Shown here one piece after another: positions 5,244 to 61,303 of a stretch of 64,000 nucleotides of DNA. Location: contig CANQHF010000003.1 in NCBI GenBank assembly GCA_947623685.1, forward strand, positions 7,321 through 71,320, read 5' to 3'. Below the pieces are notes generated by a model. That model was not told the DNA's origin. It did no database searches and worked only from the letters and a program-made list of their open reading frames with translations. Origin of the DNA: an uncultured Bacilli bacterium. Its GTDB lineage: Bacteria > Bacillota_I > Bacilli_A > RF39 > UBA660. A program made the position numbers and the translations under genes. How positions within the stretch are numbered: position 1 is the first letter of the stretch; each line of letters starts with the position of its first letter.

Positions 5244-6185
5244 ATGGAAAAAATAAGTTTAAAAAACATATATGATGAAGACGTAGAAATAGAAATTGTA
5301 GATAATCAAAATGATGCGACATTTATAACTCATAGTGGTACTTTTCATGCGGATGAAGTAATGGCAAGTGTAATATTACTTAATAAGTTTGGTTCTATGA
5401 AGATATATAGATGTAATAAACCAACTAATTTTAATGCGTTTGTCTATGATGTTGGTTTTAAAGAATTTGATCACCATGCCATAGATTTTGATAAAACAAG
5501 GCCAAATGGAATTAAATATGCATCCTGTGGTTTAGTATGGGAAAAATTTGGTAAAGATATAATTAAAAAATTAAATATAGAATCTATAGATTCATTTTTT
5601 GAAAGTATTGATAAAAATTTAATTATGGATATTGATAGAGATGATAACGGGCAGACTCTTGGCGTAGATTTGCCAATTAAAGTGCAGAGTATTCCTAATT
5701 TAATTGCTAATTTTAATCCAACTTGGGATGATTTATCTTGTGAAACAACTAATTTTTTAAAGGCAATTTTATTTGCCAATGAAATCTTTAACAACTTAAT
5801 TAAAAATATGATTTCTAAGGAAAAAGCAAGAAAAGTGGTAGAAGAAAAGATAAATGAAAGTAAAGAAGGAATTTTAGTTCTTGATAAATATATGCCTTGG
5901 AAAGATATAGTATTATCATCATCTAACCCTAAAGCAAGTGAAATCATATATGCTGTTTTTCCATCTAAAAGAGAAGGTTATAACGTTGTTGCAACACCAG
6001 TATCACCTGGCAGTTTTGATGTAAAAAAACCATTTCCAAAAAAATGGGCAGGAAAAGAGGAGGAAGAATTACAAAAATTAAGTGGAGTAGATACAATAAC
6101 GTTTTGTCATAAAAATTTATTTATATGTGCTTGTAAAACGTTTGATGATGCCATTAAGATAGCTAAAATATCATTAAAAGATTGA
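5244..6185 (+). CDS. MYG1/UPF0160 family metal-dependent hydrolase
   Basis: THSGTFHADEV motif near the N-terminus. Start trimmed to in-frame ATG 5244, because the upstream part of the track ORF overlaps the previous gene. Confidence 0.75.
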   Translation: MEKISLKNIYDEDVEIEIVDNQNDATFITHSGTFHADEVMASVILLNKFGSMKIYRCNKPTNFNAFVYDVGFKEFDHHAIDFDKTRPNGIKYASCGLVWEKFGKDIIKKLNIESIDSFFESIDKNLIMDIDRDDNGQTLGVDLPIKVQSIPNLIANFNPTWDDLSCETTNFLKAILFANEIFNNLIKNMISKEKARKVVEEKINESKEGILVLDKYMPWKDIVLSSSNPKASEIIYAVFPSKREGYNVVATPVSPGSFDVKKPFPKKWAGKEEEELQKLSGVDTITFCHKNLFICACKTFDDAIKIAKISLKD

Positions 6186-8626: not shown

Positions 8627-9922
8627 GTGGTTAATTTGAGTAATGAAAATAAAAAACAAACAAAGAAAAAAACAAGTAATAAATGTTTATATACTTGTAA
8701 AAGCATAGTGGATAAATATGAATATAAAAAGATGGCAAAATATTTTCCAAAAAGAATGTACTTACCTTTTGTACATAAAGGTACTTTTTTAAACATAATA
8801 TTTACGGCCTTAGCAGCAATACTTTCAAAAAGTTGGATTATATCATTAGTTTTCTTTTTGGTATATGAAATATTTTTATTAATATATTACAAAGTAAGAT
8901 TAGAGTTTTTCTCAGAAAAAGAGTTTATTAAAAGAAATAAGGGTAAAGAAGATGAAACTGATTTTGAAACAGAGTTTTATGAAGACTATTTTATTAGAAA
9001 AACAAACAAATCATCATTAACGATTAATTACTCTGAAATAAGTAAATGCGTTGAAAATGATACTAATTTTTATTTAGAATATCCTGAGAAAAACTTTATA
9101 ATTATTATTCAAAAAAATAGATGTGATAATGAATTAATTAATTTTATTAGAAGTAAATTTAATAATTTAGAAAATCATCTTGAAGATAATTCTAATTTTA
9201 AGAAAATGAAAAAATATCATAATCCTAATTTAATTAAAACATTTATGATTATTTTATTTATTGTTACGATTTGTAGTTTATGGGCTGCTTTATGGTCATT
9301 ATCTTTAGCAGATAAAATTAATCCTCAATATGGATCTAATTTTATTAAAAATAATTGGGTATTTTGGTTATGGCTACCTATTCCAATATTATCAATTATT
9401 CTTGGCTTTAAATACAAAAACGCTGGTTTTAAATGCACCAAAAATATCGTTGGGGGATTTATAATAACTTTCTTATTATTAATGTATGGTTCATTTTGTT
9501 TGTTTCCAACCTTTTCACAAGATTATAGTAAAATAGATGATTATAGAAATATAATAGATGCAAATCTTCCAGATAATGGAGAATTAGAAATTCAAGATTG
9601 GAAAACGCATTTTGATGATGACAAAACTAATTATACGAAAATAGATGTGTATTATGATAAAGAAGATGTTAGTAATCTAGTAAGTAGTATTGAAAATAAT
9701 AGTAATTGGATTTTAAGTAAAAAAATGAAATCAACTTTAAAAATATTAATTCCGCAGCAATTAAGGGTAGATGAAGACGCATATTTTTCTATTTATAACA
9801 AGACAAATAATGAATATAATACCATACCTAAAGCATCTGGTAATTATGAGATATATGTAATTAAATATGATAAATCTGACAAACACTTAGAAATTCACAA
9901 ATTTACGTACTTATATAAGTAA
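8627..9922 (+). CDS. multi-pass membrane protein with YcxB-like N-terminal region
   Basis: Long ORF with several hydrophobic helices. Start is uncertain (GTG 8627, TTG 8636 or ATG 8731). Confidence 0.45.
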   Translation: MVNLSNENKKQTKKKTSNKCLYTCKSIVDKYEYKKMAKYFPKRMYLPFVHKGTFLNIIFTALAAILSKSWIISLVFFLVYEIFLLIYYKVRLEFFSEKEFIKRNKGKEDETDFETEFYEDYFIRKTNKSSLTINYSEISKCVENDTNFYLEYPEKNFIIIIQKNRCDNELINFIRSKFNNLENHLEDNSNFKKMKKYHNPNLIKTFMIILFIVTICSLWAALWSLSLADKINPQYGSNFIKNNWVFWLWLPIPILSIILGFKYKNAGFKCTKNIVGGFIITFLLLMYGSFCLFPTFSQDYSKIDDYRNIIDANLPDNGELEIQDWKTHFDDDKTNYTKIDVYYDKEDVSNLVSSIENNSNWILSKKMKSTLKILIPQQLRVDEDAYFSIYNKTNNEYNTIPKASGNYEIYVIKYDKSDKHLEIHKFTYLYK

Positions 9923-51711: not shown

Positions 51712-53079
51712 TTATTTAATTAAATCATTTACTAAGTTTATAAATTCATCTTTTATTTTGTTTACTTTATTTTCCGTTTTAGCTTCAAATCTTGCGGTTA
51801 TGTTAGGACCTGTGTTACTTGCCCTTACTAAAGCCCAACCATCACTAAAGGTAACTCTTACACCATCAATTGATATATATTTATATCCTTTTTTATCACA
51901 GTATTGTTTAACTTCTTCAATTACTTTAAACTTTTTATCATCTGCGCATGGTATTTTAATTTCTGGAGTATTACATAATTTTTCATAATCAAAGGTAAGC
52001 TCACTGATACTTTTGTTTTCATTACATAGTATTTCTTGTAATCTTAGCCCGGCGTAAATTCCATCATCATATCCTAAATGTCTATCATTAAAAAATACAT
52101 GACCAGAGTATTCACCACCGAAACATGCTGGATAATCATGAACATAACTTTCTATATATGCGCTTCCGTTACATACCATAATCGGGTTTCCACCATTTTT
52201 TTTAACGGAATCTTCAAGTGCCATGGAGCATTTAACATCCATTATAATGTTTTTATTATCACTTCTTTTTAATATGTCTTTTGAATAAATAGACATTAAT
52301 TTATCAGTTTCAATTATGCATCCTTTATTATCTACTATTCCAACTCTATCAGCATCACCATCGTATGCTATTCCTAAATCAGATTTAGTTTTAACAACCA
52401 TCTTACATAAATCCTTTAAATTATCAAATACGTTAGGGTCTGGGTGATGATTTGGAAAGGTAGGATCACTTTCTGAATATATGTATATAACATCACAATT
52501 AAAGTTTTTATATACATCTCTTATTATGGTAGATGCAGTTCCATTACCACAATCAATAACGACTTTTAATCTTTTTTTACTTAAGTTTATATCATTTATT
52601 AAGCTTTCTATGTATGGTTCTTTTATATCTATGTTTTTAACATTACCTTTTATTTTGCTATCAACTTTTTTATTATTTATAATTAAATCATAAAAATGAT
52701 TTAATTCATTTGTATTTAGATGTAAACAATTATTTCCAAATATTTTGAATCCATTTTCGTTTTTAGGATTATGGCTTGCGGTTACCATTATCGCGTACTC
52801 ATTATTTAATTTATGACACGCAAAATTAAGCATTGGTGTTGTAACAATTCCTAAATAAATTACGTTTATTGCACTATTTGTTAAGCCTTCTATTAGTTTT
52901 TTAACTAACTTATCGCCACCAATTCTATTATCTCGGCCTATTATGCAAGTATCAACTTTTTTTTCTTTTAAATAATATGCATATGCATAACCTATGGTTA
53001 ATGCAGTATCTTCATTTATTTGATCTTTATAAACACCTCTAATATCCCATTTTCTTAATATTGATTTATCTAACGCCAT
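51712..53079 (-). CDS. phosphomannomutase/phosphoglucomutase family protein
   Basis: Active-site TASHNP; GIAYDGDADR metal-binding loop; GEYSGH sugar-binding loop. Confidence 0.85.
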   Translation of the reverse strand: MALDKSILRKWDIRGVYKDQINEDTALTIGYAYAYYLKEKKVDTCIIGRDNRIGGDKLVKKLIEGLTNSAINVIYLGIVTTPMLNFACHKLNNEYAIMVTASHNPKNENGFKIFGNNCLHLNTNELNHFYDLIINNKKVDSKIKGNVKNIDIKEPYIESLINDINLSKKRLKVVIDCGNGTASTIIRDVYKNFNCDVIYIYSESDPTFPNHHPDPNVFDNLKDLCKMVVKTKSDLGIAYDGDADRVGIVDNKGCIIETDKLMSIYSKDILKRSDNKNIIMDVKCSMALEDSVKKNGGNPIMVCNGSAYIESYVHDYPACFGGEYSGHVFFNDRHLGYDDGIYAGLRLQEILCNENKSISELTFDYEKLCNTPEIKIPCADDKKFKVIEEVKQYCDKKGYKYISIDGVRVTFSDGWALVRASNTGPNITARFEAKTENKVNKIKDEFINLVNDLIK

Positions 53080-53264
53080 TTTTATCCTCCTTATTTTATT
53101 ATATCACGCATTATTTTATAATGTATAAGTAAATGATTATAAACGTATAAAAATATGTATATTAAAATTAAAATAGCGAATAATATATAATGACAATGTA
53201 AATACATTGTATTGACAAATTAATATTTAAAATGCTAATATAAAAATGAAAGGAAGTGATATAA

Positions 53265-53549
53265 TTGAGTAGTATTTCCAAGCAATCTAATTTGAACATA
53301 AGATTAGATAGTAATTTAAAAAAAGAAGCAGAAGCGCTTTTTAAAAGTTTGGGACTTAATATGACAAGCGCGATAAATGTTTTCTTAACTCAAAGTGTAA
53401 AAGAACAAAAAATACCTTTTGAGATAAAAGAAAAAAAGCCATCTAGGAAATTAATTAAAGCTTTAAAAGAAGCTGATAAAATAGCTAATGATCCAAACGT
53501 AAAAGCATATGATAACGTAGATGAAATGTTTAAGGATATATTAAAATGA
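53265..53549 (+). CDS. RelB/DinJ family antitoxin
   Basis: NIRLDSNLKKEAEALFKSLGLNMTSAINVFLTQ ribbon-helix-helix N-terminus. 4-nt overlap with the toxin gene. Confidence 0.8.
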   Translation: MSSISKQSNLNIRLDSNLKKEAEALFKSLGLNMTSAINVFLTQSVKEQKIPFEIKEKKPSRKLIKALKEADKIANDPNVKAYDNVDEMFKDILK

Positions 53550-53842
53550 ATTATAAAATTAAATACACCAATGTTTTTAAAAAACAAGTTAATAAGATGG
53601 CTAAACGTGGTAAAGATATTAATAAGTTAATTGATGTTATAAAAAAAATAAAAAATGGTGAAAAATTACCGATTAAATATAAAGATCATATGCTGAATGA
53701 TAATAAAAAATATAATAACTGTCACGAATGTCATATAGAACCAGACTGGCTTTTAGTTTATAAAATCTTTGATGACATAGTAGTTGTATCACTTATAGAA
53801 ACTGGTACCCATAGTGATATCTTTAAATGCATATTAATATAA
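53546..53842 (+). CDS. yafQ: YafQ family (RelE/ParE fold) toxin
   Basis: Has the KYKDHML...CHIEPDWLLVYK...ETGTHSDIF C-terminal signature. Confidence 0.8.
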   Translation: MNYKIKYTNVFKKQVNKMAKRGKDINKLIDVIKKIKNGEKLPIKYKDHMLNDNKKYNNCHECHIEPDWLLVYKIFDDIVVVSLIETGTHSDIFKCILI

Positions 53843-53858
53843 AAGGATAGGAGATAAA

Positions 53859-54236
53859 GTGATTTTTAAAGAATTTTATATATCAGGTAAAAATGATAAA
53901 AGTAATTGCGTAATAAGAAGTTTATGTAAGATTTTAAATAAAGAATATGATGATGTTTACAATGATTTATTAAAAATTGCAAAAAAATTAAATTGTGCTT
54001 CATTTAATGATGTCCCTGTATTTGAAAAATATATGGAAGATAATAATATTATTAAAATTAATTATGATGATGAAATAAAAGTTAAAGATTTAAAAATAGA
54101 TAATGGCTCTTATATTATATTTTGTTATGATAAGAAGGATTTTTATCATATGATTTCAATTATCAATAATGTTATATATGATAAAAATAATGATTGTATG
54201 GATTTATATGTTATAACGATTTATAAAAAGATTTAA
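53859..54236 (+). CDS. hypothetical 125-aa protein on a 413-bp cassette inserted behind yafQ
   Basis: GTG start behind GGAGA. The Cys (SNCVIRS) and His (FYHMISI) arrangement is faintly papain-like. No family recognised. Confidence 0.4.
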   Translation: MIFKEFYISGKNDKSNCVIRSLCKILNKEYDDVYNDLLKIAKKLNCASFNDVPVFEKYMEDNNIIKINYDDEIKVKDLKIDNGSYIIFCYDKKDFYHMISIINNVIYDKNNDCMDLYVITIYKKI

Positions 54237-54241
54237 AAGAT

Positions 54242-54267
54242 GCATATTATAGTTAATATGCTTTTTA
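54242..54267 (+). terminator. terminator GCATATTA-TAGT-TAATATGC + T-run
   Basis: 8-bp stem, 4-nt loop, T5. The same hairpin recurs at 58848-58873. Confidence 0.65.
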
Positions 54268-54281
54268 ATTGCTGCATATAA

Positions 54282-54310
54282 TTTACAAAACTAATAAATT
54301 ATGTTATATT
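54282..54310 (+). promoter_or_regulatory. sigmaA-type promoter of the leader/deaminase operon
   Basis: TTTACA (54282-54287), 17-nt spacer, extended -10 TGtTATATT (54302-54310). Confidence 0.45.
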
Positions 54311-54349
54311 ATGATCGTAAATTGTTTAAAGAAAGGAGTGTGATTAATT

Positions 54350-54415
54350 ATGAAAAATTTACAAGTTATAAATAGTGCAGAATTAATTACGACTCCTAAT
54401 TTATTAAGCTTTTAG
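54350..54415 (+). CDS. 21-aa leader peptide MKNLQVINSAELITTPNLLSF
   Basis: AAAGGAG at 54332-54338, ATG at 54350. It contains one arm of an antiterminator. Below the ORF-track cutoff. Confidence 0.45.
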   Translation: MKNLQVINSAELITTPNLLSF

Positions 54416-54440
54416 GAATATTCTTTTGTTTATAAAATTT

Positions 54441-54467
54441 AATTCTGCATTATGCAGAATTTTTTTT
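54441..54467 (+). terminator. attenuator terminator AATTCTGCA-TTA-TGCAGAATT + T-run
   Basis: 9-bp stem plus T-run, immediately before the RBS of the ASCH-deaminase gene. The left arm can instead pair with 54376-54386. Confidence 0.7.
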
Positions 54468-54488
54468 AATAAAAAGGAGATTATTAAG

Positions 54489-55244
54489 ATGATAATAAAA
54501 TTAAATATTAATGATAAAGAAGCTTTGGCAATTAAAAATAAAACTAAAAAAGTAGAAATAAGAGCAAACAAAGAAAATAGTGCGCAAGATTATAGCAAAT
54601 TAAAACAAAATGATGTTATAGAATTTACTAGCAATAATGTGGGTACATTTTATGTTAAAGTAAAAGAAATAAATCATTATAAAACACTCGAAGAATTATT
54701 TGCTTTAGAAGGAACTAAATATACAACTTCTTCTATTAATGATAAACAAGAAGCAATTAAGAACGTAAATAAACTTGATGGTTATCAAGAAGCTATTAAG
54801 AAAAACGGTGTATATGCTATTCATATAGAATATTTATATAGCGAAAATACTGTTTGGGAAGAATTATATGAAAAGGCTAAAAATATAAGAAATCCAAAAG
54901 ATATATCAGGTATGATTAGTGCTGGTGGAGTTGGAGCAGCAATACTGACTAAAAATCATAATATTTATACTGGAGTTTGTATTGATACTGCATCATCCCT
55001 TGGTATTTGCGCTGAGCGAAATGCCATTACTAATATGATAACAAATGGTGAAAATGAGATTAAAAAACTAGTGTGTATTGATTCTAAAGGTAATGTAGGA
55101 TCTCCTTGCGGGGCATGTAGGGAGTATTTAATGCAACTTTCTAAAAATAGTAAAAATATTGAAATACTAAAAGATGTTGATTCTAAAAAAATAATAAAAT
55201 TAGAAGAATTAGTACCTGATTGGTGGGGAAAAGATAGAGTTTAA
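54489..55244 (+). CDS. ASCH domain fused to a cytidine/blasticidin-S deaminase-like domain
   Basis: N-terminal ASCH-like region (KKVEIRANKEN...). C-terminal CAERNAI ... PCGACREY zinc-deaminase motifs. Start trimmed to ATG 54489, behind AAAAGGAG. Confidence 0.7.
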   Translation: MIIKLNINDKEALAIKNKTKKVEIRANKENSAQDYSKLKQNDVIEFTSNNVGTFYVKVKEINHYKTLEELFALEGTKYTTSSINDKQEAIKNVNKLDGYQEAIKKNGVYAIHIEYLYSENTVWEELYEKAKNIRNPKDISGMISAGGVGAAILTKNHNIYTGVCIDTASSLGICAERNAITNMITNGENEIKKLVCIDSKGNVGSPCGACREYLMQLSKNSKNIEILKDVDSKKIIKLEELVPDWWGKDRV

Positions 55245-57154
55245 TGAAAAATATAGAATTAGTTATTCCTAAATTAAATCAATATTCTTATGAACAAAAA
55301 TTAGAAAGTGATCCTAAAACAATGAGTTATAATGCAGGATATGATGTATCATATTTAGGGTATCATTATGATACTGGTTGTATTGATTTTCCTAAAGAAA
55401 AATGGATAGCTACATATAATAAAAGAATAAATGAAAATAAGTATTTTGCTTACATAAAAGATTGTGATGTTAATAAATATGTTGGATACGTTAATTACCA
55501 ATATAATAAAAATGATAATATATATGAATGTGGTATTTTAATTGAAAATAAATATCGTGGTAAAGGATATTCTAAAGATGCATTAAGACTATTAGTAAAA
55601 AAAGCAAATGAGCAAGGAATAAAATATCTTTATGATACTTTTGAAAAAGAAAGAAAAAATGCCTTAAAAACATTTTTGGACGTGGGCTTTGAAATATATA
55701 AGGAAACTAAATGGAAAAAATTTAATAAGAATGTAGATGGTGTAATAGTAAGAATTAAGACGGATAAAGTATTACCTAATATTAATAAAATAAATAACAT
55801 AAATGATGTTTTAACTTTTATGAATAACCATATAAGATATGGATGGATGGACATAAATGGTAAAATTCATATTGGAAATATGAAAGGTTTTAGAAGCCTT
55901 TATAGAACGTTATCAATTGATGAAATATTAAAATATGGTATAGGAACTTGCATTGAACAAGTGAATTTGATGCATTATCTATTAAATAAAATAAACATAA
56001 AAAATAAGATGTTTGCAACAAGAATATACGAACCAAATGATTTTAATAAGTTAGATGAAGAAGAACATATGCATTGTTTTGTTTTATGTTATATTGGTAA
56101 CAAAATCTATCATATAGAGCATCCTAATTGGTATAAAATGGGTATTTATGAATATAAAAGTGAAAAAGAAGCTGTTAAAAAAATTAATAGTTATTATGTA
56201 GAGCTTTCTGGTGGAACATCAAGGCCAGTAACAGAGTTTTATAAAGTAAATCCAAATATTTCATTTAAAGAATTTAATAGTTATATTAATAATTTAGATA
56301 TTACTTTTAGAAAATTACGCGATAGCAAAAAAGATTATGAAAAACTATATAATTGGTGCAAAAGAAAACATATATATGAGTGGTTCGAACAAAGAATATT
56401 ATCTTATAATGAAATAGTTTCCAAATATAAATACAAATTAAAAATGAAAAAACAAAATTTATATATTATAAGGTCAAATAACATTGATATAGGTTTAGTT
56501 CAAATATATAAATTTGAAAATGACATAAATCTAAATGAGTTAAATAAATATAAAAACATTTATGAATATGATGTGTTTATTGGAGATGAAAATTACCTAA
56601 ATAAAGGTATAGGTAAAAAAGTAGTTGAAACGATTAATGATATTATATATAAAAAATATCATGCTGATTCGATAATATTAAGACCATTTAAAAGAAATAA
56701 AAGAGCTATTAAGTGTTATAAAAAATGTGACTTTGAAATAGTAGGGGAATATGTAGGAACTGATACATTAGGCAATAAGGAAAATATAGTTATTTTATTA
56801 AATAAACTTGATAGATTAAAATTTGGGATAGATATAGATAAATTAATTAATCTTGTTTTAGATGGTAAAAAGACAGCAACCACATCTTTATATGAATATG
56901 ATAGTTTACCTACGATAGGTGATATATCAGTGCTTACTGATTCAAATGATAATAACGTGTGTATGGTAAAAACAAAAGAAGTTATTGTAACTGAATTTAA
57001 GAATATTACTTGGAATTTAGCAAAAAAAGAAGGAGAAAATAACTCTTTAGATGAATGGAGAAAGGTTCATAAAAATTACTTTAGTAAAATAGATCCTAGT
57101 TTTAATGAAAATACTAAAGTAATATTTGAAATATTTAAAGTGATATATAAATAA
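55244..57154 (+). CDS. four-domain fusion: GNAT - transglutaminase/papain-like Cys-His domain - AAC(6')-like GNAT - ASCH
   Basis: GNAT A-motifs YRGKGYSKDAL and LNKGIGKKVVE. Middle GTCIEQVNLMHYLL ... HMHCFVL ... IEHP. C-terminal LVLDGKKTATTS ASCH block. TAATG overlap with the upstream gene. Confidence 0.6.
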   Translation: MKNIELVIPKLNQYSYEQKLESDPKTMSYNAGYDVSYLGYHYDTGCIDFPKEKWIATYNKRINENKYFAYIKDCDVNKYVGYVNYQYNKNDNIYECGILIENKYRGKGYSKDALRLLVKKANEQGIKYLYDTFEKERKNALKTFLDVGFEIYKETKWKKFNKNVDGVIVRIKTDKVLPNINKINNINDVLTFMNNHIRYGWMDINGKIHIGNMKGFRSLYRTLSIDEILKYGIGTCIEQVNLMHYLLNKINIKNKMFATRIYEPNDFNKLDEEEHMHCFVLCYIGNKIYHIEHPNWYKMGIYEYKSEKEAVKKINSYYVELSGGTSRPVTEFYKVNPNISFKEFNSYINNLDITFRKLRDSKKDYEKLYNWCKRKHIYEWFEQRILSYNEIVSKYKYKLKMKKQNLYIIRSNNIDIGLVQIYKFENDINLNELNKYKNIYEYDVFIGDENYLNKGIGKKVVETINDIIYKKYHADSIILRPFKRNKRAIKCYKKCDFEIVGEYVGTDTLGNKENIVILLNKLDRLKFGIDIDKLINLVLDGKKTATTSLYEYDSLPTIGDISVLTDSNDNNVCMVKTKEVIVTEFKNITWNLAKKEGENNSLDEWRKVHKNYFSKIDPSFNENTKVIFEIFKVIYK

Positions 57155-57184
57155 AAATAGATGATATTATAAATAATAAAGGAA

Positions 57185-57718
57185 GTGATTATAATAAAAG
57201 AAATATTGTATAACTATGATAATTTAACTGAAGATGATATTGATGAAGTTGTTATTAGATGTAAAGCATTAATAATAAATAGTAAAAATGAAATTACTTT
57301 AGGATATTCTAATAAAACATATCAATTTCCCGGCGGACACTTAGAAGAAAAAGAGACATTAACTGAGTGTTTATTAAGAGAAATAGAAGAAGAAACGGGT
57401 ATAAAACTAAAAGATGCAAAAATAGAACCATTTCAAAAAATAACTTATTATAATAAAAATTATCATAAAAGTAACAAGAATAGAAAAAACGAAATCTATT
57501 ATTTCATTGTTAAGTCGGATGCAAAATTTAATATGAAATATGCTAAGTTAGATGAAGGGGAAAAAGAAGGAAATTATATTCCTATTACAGTACCAATTAA
57601 TAAAGTAAAGCAAATTTTGATAGATAGCATACCTGATAATCCAGTAAACAAAGTAATTGTTGAAGAAATGCTAGAAGCATTAAAAGAATATGATAAAATT
57701 AAAGATAGATGTAATTAA
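57185..57718 (+). CDS. NUDIX hydrolase
   Basis: Nudix box GGHLEEKETLTECLLREIEEETGI. Exact start uncertain. Confidence 0.85.
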   Translation: MIIIKEILYNYDNLTEDDIDEVVIRCKALIINSKNEITLGYSNKTYQFPGGHLEEKETLTECLLREIEEETGIKLKDAKIEPFQKITYYNKNYHKSNKNRKNEIYYFIVKSDAKFNMKYAKLDEGEKEGNYIPITVPINKVKQILIDSIPDNPVNKVIVEEMLEALKEYDKIKDRCN

Positions 57719-57736
57719 ACATAGGAGATTACAAAT

Positions 57737-58447
57737 ATGAAAAAAGTTTTAGAAACAAGTTTATGTAAGATTAATTATTCAGAAAGTTTAGAAGATTTAG
57801 TAGAAGCAACTGTTTCATTACTTAATCAAAAAATAAAAGAATTTAAATTGTTTTTTGATATTACTAATGATGAACAAATAGTTGTTAATTATTTTGATAA
57901 TGTTGAAGAATTTAGAGAGTTTATATATTCTATAAGAGGTGAAAGAGATTCGTTACCTAAATATGCTAAAGGGACTTATGATAATGAAATGATAAATGCA
58001 TGTATTAATCCTAAATATCAATTAAAAAAAGTATATAACGCTAGTCATGAATTATTTCATATTTTATATATGAAATATATATTGAATAACGATTATTCAA
58101 AAAGAATAGTTTGGTATGACGAGGGTATGGCACAATTTATGTCTGGAGAAAAAGATTTATTAAGTCAATCTAATGTTTTTAATAGCTTTTATTTAAAGGT
58201 AAAAAAGCAAACAAAAATTATACCTAAAATAAATAGTTTGGAACACGGAACTTCGTTTGTTAACGAGAATTACAATGGTTATGATTTAAGTTATTTATGC
58301 ATTAGATATTTATCAGAAATATTAAGTTCTGAACAATTTAAAAACTTAAAGTCGGATTTTTCAATGATTAATAAATTTGGTAATGATATAATACAGAAAA
58401 TGTTTAGTTATTATGATGAAAAATTACAAGTAGCTATAAAAAAATAA
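57737..58447 (+). CDS. hypothetical HEXXH protein (putative zinc metallopeptidase)
   Basis: ASHELFHILY, with a downstream DEGMAQF that could supply a third ligand Glu. Confidence 0.35.
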   Translation: MKKVLETSLCKINYSESLEDLVEATVSLLNQKIKEFKLFFDITNDEQIVVNYFDNVEEFREFIYSIRGERDSLPKYAKGTYDNEMINACINPKYQLKKVYNASHELFHILYMKYILNNDYSKRIVWYDEGMAQFMSGEKDLLSQSNVFNSFYLKVKKQTKIIPKINSLEHGTSFVNENYNGYDLSYLCIRYLSEILSSEQFKNLKSDFSMINKFGNDIIQKMFSYYDEKLQVAIKK

Positions 58448-58590
58448 AATTAAATCATCTTATTAAGTTTAATAGAAATTTTATAGGATGATTTTTGTTT
58501 TAAATTAACTTTAATAGTTAACCTTTTTATAAAAGAATACGTAAAATATGTTATAATAAATATAGAAAAGCTTAAGAAGGTGTGGTTTTA

Positions 58591-58785
58591 ATGAATAATA
58601 ACGAAATATTAAATGAGAAAATGATACAAGAAAAAATAAAAAAAGTTAACGGGGCTATGGCACAAGAGGGTATGCCATTAACTAAAGAATTAAAACAAAA
58701 ACTTTATAATTGTATAATTGGTAGAACTACAACGGAAATAGAAAGAAAAAAAATAATAGAAAAATATAGAGGTCTTTATGGATAA
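58591..58785 (+). CDS. VbhA-like small antitoxin (orphan)
   Basis: About 64 aa with a VNGAMAQEGMPLT segment resembling the VbhA inhibitory helix. The position normally S/T is Ala. The expected downstream Fic gene is reduced to ATGGATAAATAA. Confidence 0.4.
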   Translation: MNNNEILNEKMIQEKIKKVNGAMAQEGMPLTKELKQKLYNCIIGRTTTEIERKKIIEKYRGLYG

Positions 58786-58847
58786 ATAAATATTTATTGT
58801 TCAGACGAATTAAGAAAATTATTTAATATATAGTGATATCTTTAAAT

Positions 58848-58873
58848 GCATATTATAGTTAATATGCTTTTTT
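58848..58873 (+). terminator. terminator GCATATTA-TAGT-TAATATGC + T7 (second copy)
   Basis: Identical hairpin to 54242-54261, preceded by 26 nt identical to the 3' end of yafQ. Confidence 0.6.
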
Positions 58874-58897
58874 TAATTGTAAGCGCATAAAAATATA

Positions 58898-58926
58898 TTG
58901 TTATATAAACAATTGTTTGGTATAAT
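58898..58926 (+). promoter_or_regulatory. sigmaA-type promoter of the type I toxin mRNA
   Basis: TTGTTA (58898-58903), 17-nt spacer, extended -10 TGgTATAAT (58918-58926). Confidence 0.5.
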
Positions 58927-58991
58927 TATTTTAGGAACATTTAATGTGAGTGTTGCCCTCCAATCTTGAAAAAGAAGGGGGGTAGATATTA

Positions 58992-59084
58992 ATGAAAACC
59001 AAAACCTTTATCGTAAAAGTTCTGAGGCTCATTGCTATCATTTTGTTACTTTCTACCTTACTGGTGTTAGCAATAAAAAAATAG
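58992..59084 (+). CDS. 30-aa hydrophobic peptide, type I toxin candidate
   Basis: MKTKTFIVKVLRLIAIILLLSTLLVLAIKK. G6 Shine-Dalgarno at 58977-58982, 9 nt before the ATG. Not in the ORF track. Confidence 0.55.
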   Translation: MKTKTFIVKVLRLIAIILLLSTLLVLAIKK

Positions 59085-59207
59085 ACACTCAATCAGCATT
59101 GATCGAGTGTCTCTTCATTGATTGAGTGTTAAACTCAGTTTAAGAGGCGACATTCACTTGCGAATTTAAATGTTCCTCTTTTTTTATTATATGCAAGGTT
59201 TCTTGCT
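59075..59207 (-). ncRNA. candidate antisense antitoxin RNA convergent with the toxin mRNA
   Basis: The minus-strand promoter at 59214-59242 points into the toxin 3' UTR. On the minus strand the hairpin AGACACTC/GAGTGTCT (59083-59112) is followed by T7. Ends are inferred. Confidence 0.45.
59143..59185 (+). terminator. terminator of the toxin mRNA
   Basis: AGAGG(C)GACATT ... AATGTTCCTCT long hairpin followed by T7. Confidence 0.6.
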
Positions 59208-59213
59208 AAATAC

Positions 59214-59242
59214 ATATTAACATAAATGCGTGATTTTGTCAA
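59214..59242 (-). promoter_or_regulatory. near-consensus sigmaA promoter on the minus strand
   Basis: The minus strand reads TTGACA (59242-59237), 17-nt spacer, TAATAT (59219-59214). Confidence 0.55.
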
Positions 59243-59278
59243 AATTTTGCTTCTTAGACTTTAATAAACATTTTTTAA

Positions 59279-61303
<2,025 letters not shown>

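Follow-up and report, generated by a model that had tools for sequence, protein, structure and literature searches.

In contig CANQHF010000003.1 of an uncultured Bacilli bacterium, we analyzed a stretch of 64,000 nucleotides (nt; hereafter, the window) in which the gene for a 251-amino-acid (aa) fusion of the Pfam domains ASCH and dCMP_cyt_deam_1 (hereafter ASCH-CDA, for ASCH-cytidine deaminase) is preceded by a compact leader with a short open reading frame (ORF) and a putative intrinsic terminator. Features of the window are on the forward strand unless stated otherwise. The leader unit starts with a -35 hexamer, TTTACA (54282-54287), a 17-nt spacer and an extended -10 element, TGtTATATT (54302-54310), followed by the predicted 5' end of the transcript with the conserved motif GUAAAUU (54317-54323), which is nearly invariant in both alignments of homologous leaders. 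Next come the Shine-Dalgarno (SD) sequence AAAGGAG (54332-54338) and an ORF of 21 codons plus TAG, MKNLQVINSAELITTPNLLSF (54350-54415). The gap between the leader stop codon and the terminator contains a U-rich block, TTCTTTT (54421-54427), that is conserved in the main clade and is a candidate RNA polymerase pause site. The terminator hairpin, AATTCTGCA/TTA/TGCAGAATT (54441-54461), has a 9-bp stem and a 3-nt loop; its 3' arm (54453-54461) merges with a T-run that extends to 54467, the full tract of eight T (54460-54467) starting with the final two bases of the stem. A terminator scan recovered the same hairpin independently. The distance between the leader stop codon and the terminator 5' arm is 25 nt in the window and 12-30 nt in homologs. 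The unit ends with an SD sequence, GGAG (54476-54479), and the ASCH-CDA gene, from the ATG at 54489 to the stop codon at 55244.

The promoter, the SD sequence, the 21-codon ORF, the terminator and the complementarity between 54376-54386 and 54439-54449 had all been listed in an initial annotation of this DNA, and each is read directly from the sequence at those coordinates. The placement of the terminator immediately ahead of the deaminase gene also holds, with the start of that gene corrected to the ATG at 54489. As in leader-peptide attenuators, the promoter is followed by an apparent intrinsic terminator before the regulated ORF begins. The promoter match alone carries no weight because promoter-like hexamers are not enriched in this AT-rich window (66 matches against 77.6 expected). 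The 9-mer TGCAGAATT occurs five times in the 64 kb, compared with 0.91 expected, and three of these occurrences fall within 86 nt at the leader; the other two, at 210 and 5194, have no flanking inverted repeat or T-run and are unrelated.

Conservation of the leader, its helices and its reading frame

A protein-guided scan of species-representative genomes with the 251-aa protein identified about 49 full-length orthologs with 67-98% identity, the nearest of which (97-98%) come from metagenome-assembled genomes (MAGs) of the rabbit gut. The corresponding records are titled uncultured Bacilli, Tenericutes, Mollicutes or Firmicutes, Firmicutes bacterium CAG:822, Clostridium sp. CAG:914 and CAG:710, and Candidatus Faecimonas and Onthocola; we take the uncultured Bacilli, Tenericutes and Mollicutes, together with CAG:822, CAG:914 and CAG:710, to represent the order RF39. 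A recognizable copy of the leader is located directly upstream of the gene in about 45 of these orthologs. A DNA-pattern scan of metagenome contigs returned 72 loci, 70 of which contain true leaders, nearly all from gut metagenomes and with the same downstream gene, apart from one locus that has lost it (L136, see below); the remaining two (L134 and L147) are chance matches. A profile search of the window and 80 loci detected one leader copy per locus, in front of the ASCH-CDA gene, and none ahead of other genes; no gene other than ASCH-CDA shows a constant link to the leader. The promoter geometry TT[TG]ACA-17-TATATT-6-GTAAAT is found in 65 of the 73 distinct homologous 5' regions. Among these 65, TTTACA or TTGACA at the 17-nt spacing is present in 64, TATATT in 62 and the TG extension in 40, and the -10 element is always 6 nt ahead of GTAAAT. 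A cmscan of 53000-59500 against Rfam 15, at E-values up to 10, produced only chance matches to eukaryotic miRNAs and snoRNAs, one of which, a minus-strand hairpin at 54328-54406, reflects the helix denoted P1 below.

The 159-nt leader (54317-54475) folds at -33.3 kcal/mol (z = -3.69), and none of 200 shuffled sequences folds as well. The initial annotation had described a competition between two helices, an antiterminator (AT) and the terminator (T). Both helices are supported by the comparisons below, but the two-helix model is incomplete, in that it missed a stronger helix, P1. The 5' arm of P1 (54334-54349) consists of the leader SD sequence and the spacer up to the start codon and appears in both the minimum free energy (MFE) and the centroid folds; together with UG of the AUG, it pairs with 54381-54397 (AAUUAAUUACgACUCCU, codons 11-16), which contains the anti-SD sequence ACUCCU. 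The 5' arm of AT (54375-54386, gTGCAGAATTAA, codons 9-13) is a direct repeat of the terminator 3' arm and overlaps the 3' arm of P1 by six bases. It pairs with 54439-54450, of which 54441-54449 doubles as the terminator 5' arm, and the segment TGCAGAATTAA at 54376-54386 is the exact reverse complement of 54439-54449. In isolation, the helices have energies of -14.4 (P1), -10.2 (AT) and -9.1 (T) kcal/mol; energies derived from alignment columns were discarded in favor of direct folding, given that they underestimate P1 in the NCNAELITL clade, which uses a different pairing register. Thus, the predicted folds include three competing structures rather than two, with P1 in the role of the anti-antiterminator. 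Because P1 is the stronger helix and overlaps the AT 5' arm, the RNA is predicted to fold without a ribosome as P1 plus T, not as AT. With P1 missed, the default state in the earlier model was reversed and the inducing ribosome positions were displaced: a ribosome on codons 9-13 would block AT instead of favoring it, and modeling places the inducing positions at codons 1-4 and possibly the last few codons.

The helices were assessed on an alignment of 66 distinct sequences. P1 and T jointly are 94.2% paired, with seven pairs changed on both sides, a result matched by none of 500 shuffles, compared with 33-51% pairing in slid controls; separately, P1 is 94% paired with three such pairs and T is 94.6% paired with four. 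The 12-bp AT (54375-54386 with 54439-54450), which uses one arm of the terminator and so excludes it, is 92.5% paired, against 22-44% with a slid partner; four of its pairs, in seven cells, are changed on both sides, again with no match among 500 shuffles. In particular, L145 carries two double compensations (CAU replaces UGC in the 5' arm of AT, and the partner segment has GUG in place of GCA), and L031 and L054 show three-way changes in which the AT arm and both terminator arms are altered together. In L028, AT stays perfect and T pays with a G-U pair. In L041, the usual AT arm is gone; its place is taken by AUGUUUCUCAU (codons 7-10), which is complementary to the terminator loop, here enlarged (AUGAGAAACAU). 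Conservation across the 66 distinct sequences, with compensatory changes in the helices, indicates that the feature is real.

A further potential helix, P0, is formed by the 5'-terminal GUAAAUU (54317-54323) and AAUUUAC (54356-54362, codons 3-5 of the leader). P0 can pair in 97.6% of the cells in the same 66 sequences, where both sides are nearly invariant and no covariation is seen either way. The AAUUUAC element is kept despite in-frame insertions on either side of it (L031 and L040), and P0 would cross P1, forming a pseudoknot or an alternative fold. Another hairpin, around the leader stop codon (CCUAA...UUAGG), was rejected as not conserved beyond the main clade.

The leader ORF was compared in 33 distinct versions. 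It has 18-24 codons and is open in all 33, whereas the other two frames contain, on average, 2.2 and 3.5 stop codons over the same span; the ATG is invariant and GGAG of the SD sequence is invariant or nearly so. Six leaders, among those inspected by eye, differ in length between the ATG and the conserved GCAGAATTAATC block, and all these differences are multiples of three (relative to the window, -3 in L014, +3 in L040 and L041, +6 in L061, +9 in L034 and +18 in L031). Synonymous wobble changes are also present (AAA/AAG, ATA/ATT, ACG/ACT/ACA and AAT/AAC). These observations support translation of the leader ORF, a short frame that overlaps the switching segments. In the leaders compared, the stop codon is located at least five codons past Ile13, which is just enough for a terminating ribosome to keep the AT arm uncovered. 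At the sequence level, comparison of homologs demonstrates the three helices and the translated ORF. The central claim of the initial annotation, that a translated leader with competing antiterminator and terminator controls the deaminase operon, is well supported by comparative evidence.

Four loci have altered or missing leaders. L136 (leader at about 8688-8875, minus strand) has lost the ASCH-CDA gene, and the leader, with a degenerate AT 5' arm (GCAAATTT), directly precedes the GNAT gene that is normally next. A natural deletion between the two TGCAGAATT direct repeats, i.e., the AT arm and the terminator 3' arm, is found in L021 (2099-2160); the terminator is lost, the leader ORF is joined in frame (57 nt) to the start of ASCH-CDA, the promoter and the 5' portion of the leader are replaced as well, and the allele is likely constitutive. 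In L132 (leader at about 5552-5739, minus strand), approximately 90 nt of G+C-rich foreign sequence replace the region from the last leader codons to the terminator; insertion, recombination or chimeric assembly could account for this. The ortholog in L038 (1-98) has no leader; instead, its SD sequence is immediately preceded by an unlike terminator-type hairpin, GAATGAAAT-AAA-ATTTCATTC with a T7 tract, which may be another attenuator. The L038 contig is cut after 93 nt.

Ribosome position and the proposed switch

To relate ribosome position to the fold, the ribosome footprint was masked at each P-site codon and the transcript was folded to the end of the terminator 5' arm. In this thermodynamic scan, AT forms in only two situations, with the ribosome at codons 1-2 (extending to 4) or at one of the last 3-5 codons, and never with the ribosome on the codons in between (5-16 of the 21-codon leader); without a ribosome, AT does not form in the window sequence. 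The early window of permissive positions (codons 1-4) is insensitive to the choice of footprint among those tried and is seen in 17 of the 18 leaders evaluated; the scan measure does not capture the AT of L041. The late window is seen in most species but not in L029, L031 and L035. Full-length MFE folds of five diverse leaders without a ribosome are P1 plus T, and when positions -15 to +14 relative to the AUG are masked, all five adopt the long-range AT instead.

These results suggest the following scenario. A sigma-70-type promoter would initiate the transcript near 54317, and the SD sequence, spacer and start codon (54334-54349) would be made first, leaving a brief chance for ribosome loading before the complementary segment (54381-54397, codons 11-16) emerges some 45 nt later. 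If the 5' arm is free of the ribosome, P1 would form, hiding the SD sequence and occupying half of the AT arm (54375-54386), and the terminator (54441-54461 with its U tract) would fold, ending transcription ahead of the ASCH-CDA gene. Under normal translation, a ribosome on codons 5-16 would cover the AT arm, and after its departure, P1 would re-form, again with termination as the outcome. With the ribosome held on the start codon or the first four or so codons, the P1 5' arm would be occupied and 54375-54386 free to pair with 54439-54450 as soon as the latter is made, such that no terminator would form and the operon would be transcribed. The same may apply to a ribosome that stays on the stop codon or one of the last 3-5 codons, because it would cover the G+C-rich base of P1.

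We consider it somewhat more probable than not that the leader is a ribosome-dependent three-state transcription attenuator (anti-antiterminator, antiterminator and terminator), the trigger of which is most likely a translation inhibitor that arrests initiating or early-elongating ribosomes. The coupling of ribosome position to outcome is what we infer from the modeling and from the analogy to the vmlR leader discussed below. RNA polymerase may also pause at the U-rich block (54421-54427): a TTNTTT-type motif (TTCTTT, 54421-54426) is present in most homologous leaders, but given its absence from a whole sub-clade, the motif for NusG-dependent pausing is only a suggestion.

Several observations weigh against this interpretation. 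The conserved residues of the peptide, M-K-N-L-Q ... N-A-E-L-I-T, all lie under P0, AT or P1 pairing, and codons 6-9 and the C-terminal codons vary freely. There is no sign of selection on the peptide sequence itself across the 33 distinct leaders, and inspection of the 33 peptides revealed no R/K-x-R/K, IFVI, MRL or MVKTD-like arrest motif. Antibiotics that stall ribosomes at the start codon need no arrest motif in the peptide. A model of pure start-codon stalling, in turn, has no need for an ORF kept in frame through the 3' arm of P1. The late window depends on the footprint and disappears when the latter is set to 26 nt. In L008, a consensus-type leader, AT already reaches 0.77 at equilibrium without a ribosome before the terminator 3' arm exists, so that the default state of this leader depends on the order of folding, with P1 made about 45 nt earlier, and on its kinetics. 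Most of the aligned sequences are close relatives, and independent covariation events are accordingly few, although the comparative evidence appears uniform in direction. Finally, the scores mark the regulated enzyme as an ordinary cytidine deaminase, and none of the downstream genes passes the cutoff of any NCBIfam resistance model.

The main rival, which we regard as unlikely, retains the three-helix switch but takes nucleotide supply as the signal, in the manner of Escherichia coli pyrBI. Low UTP, or another nucleoside triphosphate, would cause RNA polymerase to dwell in the U-rich region 54416-54440, the ribosome would catch up to the last codons or the stop codon and cover the base of P1, and the released 54375-54386 segment would form AT; a deaminase converting cytidine to uridine would then be made when uridine nucleotides are scarce. 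The cytidine deaminase score of the regulated gene fits this scheme, as do the U-rich block that is always present between the leader stop codon and the terminator and the late AT-permissive window (last 3-5 codons) that most species show. The scheme also accounts for the ORF being kept open through P1 and for the stop codon that never comes fewer than five codons after Ile13, just far enough to expose the AT arm. However, the pyrBI ribosome blocks the terminator physically, whereas the stop codon here lies 12-30 nt upstream of the terminator 5' arm; the late window on which the scheme depends is lost with the 26-nt footprint and in L029, L031 and L035; the gene belongs to an accessory module among GNAT and detoxification-type genes rather than to a pyrimidine salvage operon; and deaminase positions that we take to contact the base and the ribose are not conserved (see below).

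Even less probable is a leader that senses the supply or modification of aminoacyl-tRNA through stalling at hungry codons, as in trp, his or leu attenuators. Formally, the four-segment architecture resembles that of the trp attenuator, the leader has frequent Asn and Leu codons, and ASCH domains have been linked to the removal of N4-acetylcytidine (ac4C) from tRNA (bioRxiv 10.64898/2026.02.27.708502). Yet there is no regulatory codon run, and codons 6-9 and the C-terminal codons are freely variable; Asn, Leu, Ile and Lys are simply abundant where the genome is AT-rich; ribosomes stalled on codons 5-16 are predicted to favor termination; and the regulated genes are not biosynthetic. An incidental ORF within a riboswitch or a protein-binding leader, for instance one autoregulated by the RNA-binding-like ASCH domain, with a ligand that stabilizes or melts P1, is the least credible alternative: it would explain why all conserved peptide positions coincide with RNA pairing, and sequestration of the SD sequence by P1 could be read as translational silencing of a non-functional ORF, but Rfam gives no family match up to E = 10, the apex of P1, unlike an aptamer, differs in sequence and length among leaders (by up to 18 nt, always in multiples of three), and the ATG, the SD sequence and the open frame are strictly conserved, with the other two frames full of stop codons.

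The regulated enzyme and its genomic neighborhood

The ASCH domain of the 251-aa protein contains the octapeptide KTKKVEIR, i.e., a motif of the K..E.R (GKER) type; the protein was therefore not assigned to the YqfB-type Thr amidohydrolases, which have GKTR. ASCH proteins of both the GKTR and GKER types hydrolyze N4-acetylcytidine, free or in tRNA (PMC6972931; bioRxiv 10.64898/2026.02.27.708502), and N4-substituted cytidines are convertible by tetrameric cytidine deaminases (CDAs) (PMC9897663). In the deaminase domain (54840-55241), the zinc ligands and the catalytic Glu are intact (CAER and PCGACR motifs). This domain passes the NCBIfam model for cytidine deaminase, PRK05578 (78.2 bits, cutoff 74), and in comparison with known structures, it scores about 50 bits against tetrameric Cdd and 25-31 bits against blasticidin-S deaminase, which places it closer to Cdd and leaves an assignment as blasticidin-S deaminase unsupported. 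The positions aligned with F24, N42, E44 and Y48 of Bacillus subtilis CDA, which we take to be contacts of the base and the ribose, are occupied by G, C, D and a gap, respectively. The substrate may therefore not be plain cytidine.

The deaminase domain shares the sub-family signature GVCIDTA..LG(I/M)CAERNA with stand-alone homologs. These relatives (52-69% identity) are found in Enterococcus timonensis, in Treponema and in Bacteroidales-labeled and Clostridia genomes, within GNAT-rich islands that also contain P-loop kinase-like genes; the loci include L077:4714-7078 in Treponema, L050:8141-9706 in a Muribaculaceae-labeled MAG and L051:4885-7480 in E. timonensis. One of these loci adjoins a CatA-like O-acetyltransferase (378 bits, cutoff 275; family 3) and an AAC(3)-like fusion, and another adjoins a ribosomal-protection-like ABC-F protein (367.5 bits, cutoff 380). 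Thus, in two of the five loci examined, the context hints at xenobiotic or antibiotic handling.

A bolder extension of the attenuator model, for which we would claim only a small probability, connects these observations. Under this extension, the leader would be a single-use sensor of antibiotics that target the peptidyl transferase center or initiation and would induce an ASCH-deaminase that inactivates cytosine-based nucleoside antibiotics, the ASCH part removing N4-acyl groups (amicetin-type) and the deaminase part converting the cytosine moiety in the manner of blasticidin-S deaminase; the stand-alone relatives, which in Enterococcus, Treponema and Bacteroidales share islands with cat-like, aac(3)-like and ABC-F genes, would supply the context. 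If true, this would be a previously unrecognized, inducible, drug-modifying resistance module that has spread among uncultured gut Bacilli.

Downstream of ASCH-CDA, three co-directional genes probably belong to the same operon: a 636-aa fusion of a GNAT domain, a transglutaminase-like region, an AAC(6')-like GNAT domain and an ASCH domain (55244-57154), a NUDIX protein (57185-57718) and a peptidase-MA-like protein (57737-58447). The parts of the 636-aa protein (residues 1-353, 352-518 and 519-636) are encoded by two or three separate genes elsewhere, so that the 636-aa gene is a fusion specific to this lineage. Its AAC(6')-like domain scores 58 bits against the AAC(6')-Ie family cutoff of 340, and the regulated gene itself is not a recognized resistance determinant; a module that modifies antibiotics or nucleoside toxins, as initially proposed, is a plausible hypothesis.

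Of the deaminase/acetyltransferase/NUDIX operon of the initial annotation, only the ASCH-deaminase gene keeps a constant link to the leader; the acetyltransferase and the NUDIX gene vary between genomes. The downstream content forms a shuffled cassette array that draws on several GNAT families, free-standing ASCH domains, a metallophosphoesterase, a P-loop kinase-like protein, NT5C/HAD-like proteins, Ham1/ITPase, NUDIX and a 125-aa protein. In the window, the 125-aa protein (53859-54236), which has no family match, is encoded upstream of the leader, whereas its counterparts in 14 other genomes are part of the cassette array that follows the deaminase gene, suggesting local rearrangement. Variation is just as great upstream of the leader, where 92 ORF families were counted in 42 loci. 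The variability on both sides indicates that the module is accessory. A RelB antitoxin/YafQ toxin pair located just upstream in the window (53265-53842; Pfam RelB, 5.8e-11; YafQ_toxin, 7.4e-29) is consistent with a variable, accessory region. The leader unit is set apart from the upstream transcription unit by a terminator-like hairpin of the preceding gene, GCATATTA-TAGT-TAATATGC followed by T5 (54242-54266), which was read from the sequence and, with only two G-C pairs, was not listed by the terminator scan.

Comparison with known attenuators

In the literature that could be searched, no paper ties a leader peptide to a cytidine deaminase gene; the type of switch is known, and this particular leader-peptide attenuator is apparently undescribed. 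It represents a well-supported attenuator from a lineage without a cultured model, and its target, a nucleoside-base deaminase fused to an ASCH domain, is unusual for the mechanism, being neither an rRNA methylase nor an ABC-F protein nor an efflux pump. With the leader's own ribosome-binding site in the anti-antiterminator, each transcript would test for one ribosome during a brief co-transcriptional window, a compact design with potential for reuse in sensing translation stress. Should a drug prove to be the inducer, the leader would point to a candidate module for resistance or detoxification among gut commensals; should it be nucleotide supply, the mechanism would be a pyrBI-like one in Firmicutes.

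The E. coli pyrBI attenuator similarly combines a leader peptide with an intrinsic terminator after a U-rich region and controls a gene of pyrimidine metabolism. There, however, the leader ORF spans the terminator and the ribosome blocks the hairpin, whereas here, the ORF ends 12-30 nt before it (25 nt in the window) and an AT helix exists. The E. coli trp attenuator shares the formal 1:2, 2:3, 3:4 logic, including superattenuation, in which an untranslated leader adopts 1:2 plus 3:4 and terminates. Unlike in trp, segment 1 is the ribosome-binding site itself and not codons of the ORF, there are no runs of regulatory codons (the predicted inducing codons 1-4 are M-K-N-L, with no cluster of the kind seen in amino acid leaders), and the genes are non-biosynthetic.

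As in the erm, cat and msr-type leaders of Firmicutes (ermC, ermK, cat-86 and msrD), occupancy of a short leader by the ribosome would redistribute hairpins ahead of an accessory gene. The erm, cat and msr leaders stall the ribosome at defined internal codons through contacts between the nascent peptide and the drug (IFVI, +x+), and many of them act on translation; in contrast, internal stalls (codons 5-16) are predicted to be non-inducing here, and the peptide has no such motif.

The parallel to the vmlR leader of B. subtilis, also a member of the Firmicutes, extends further. In vmlR, the start of the upstream ORF (uORF) lies within the anti-antiterminator hairpin SL-1, as shown experimentally; a lincomycin- or retapamulin-arrested initiating ribosome blocks the base of SL-1 so that the antiterminator forms, and a NusG-dependent TTNTTT pause upstream of the terminator sets the timing (PMC9226507). 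Retapamulin, tetracycline and thiostrepton hold ribosomes at start codons (PMC13410324). The two leaders have no sequence similarity. The vmlR uORF has three codons and an unpaired SD sequence, whereas the ORF described here has 18-24 codons that run through the P1 3' arm and the AT arm, with the SD sequence in a helix. Unlike in vmlR, no hairpin sequesters the SD sequence of the main gene, and the regulated gene encodes a deaminase fusion instead of an ABC-F protein. The logic of vmlR has been tested experimentally, and that of the leader unit described here is predicted from sequence comparison, modeling and the analogy to vmlR. With these differences, both leaders comprise three mutually exclusive structures (in vmlR, SL-1 with uORF(MIN), the antiterminator and the terminator SL-3; PMC9226507), both carry a TTNTTT motif upstream of the terminator (here, in most but not all homologs), and in both, the start of the short ORF is embedded in the anti-antiterminator, such that arrested initiation leads, in our case as a prediction, to antiterminator formation and read-through.

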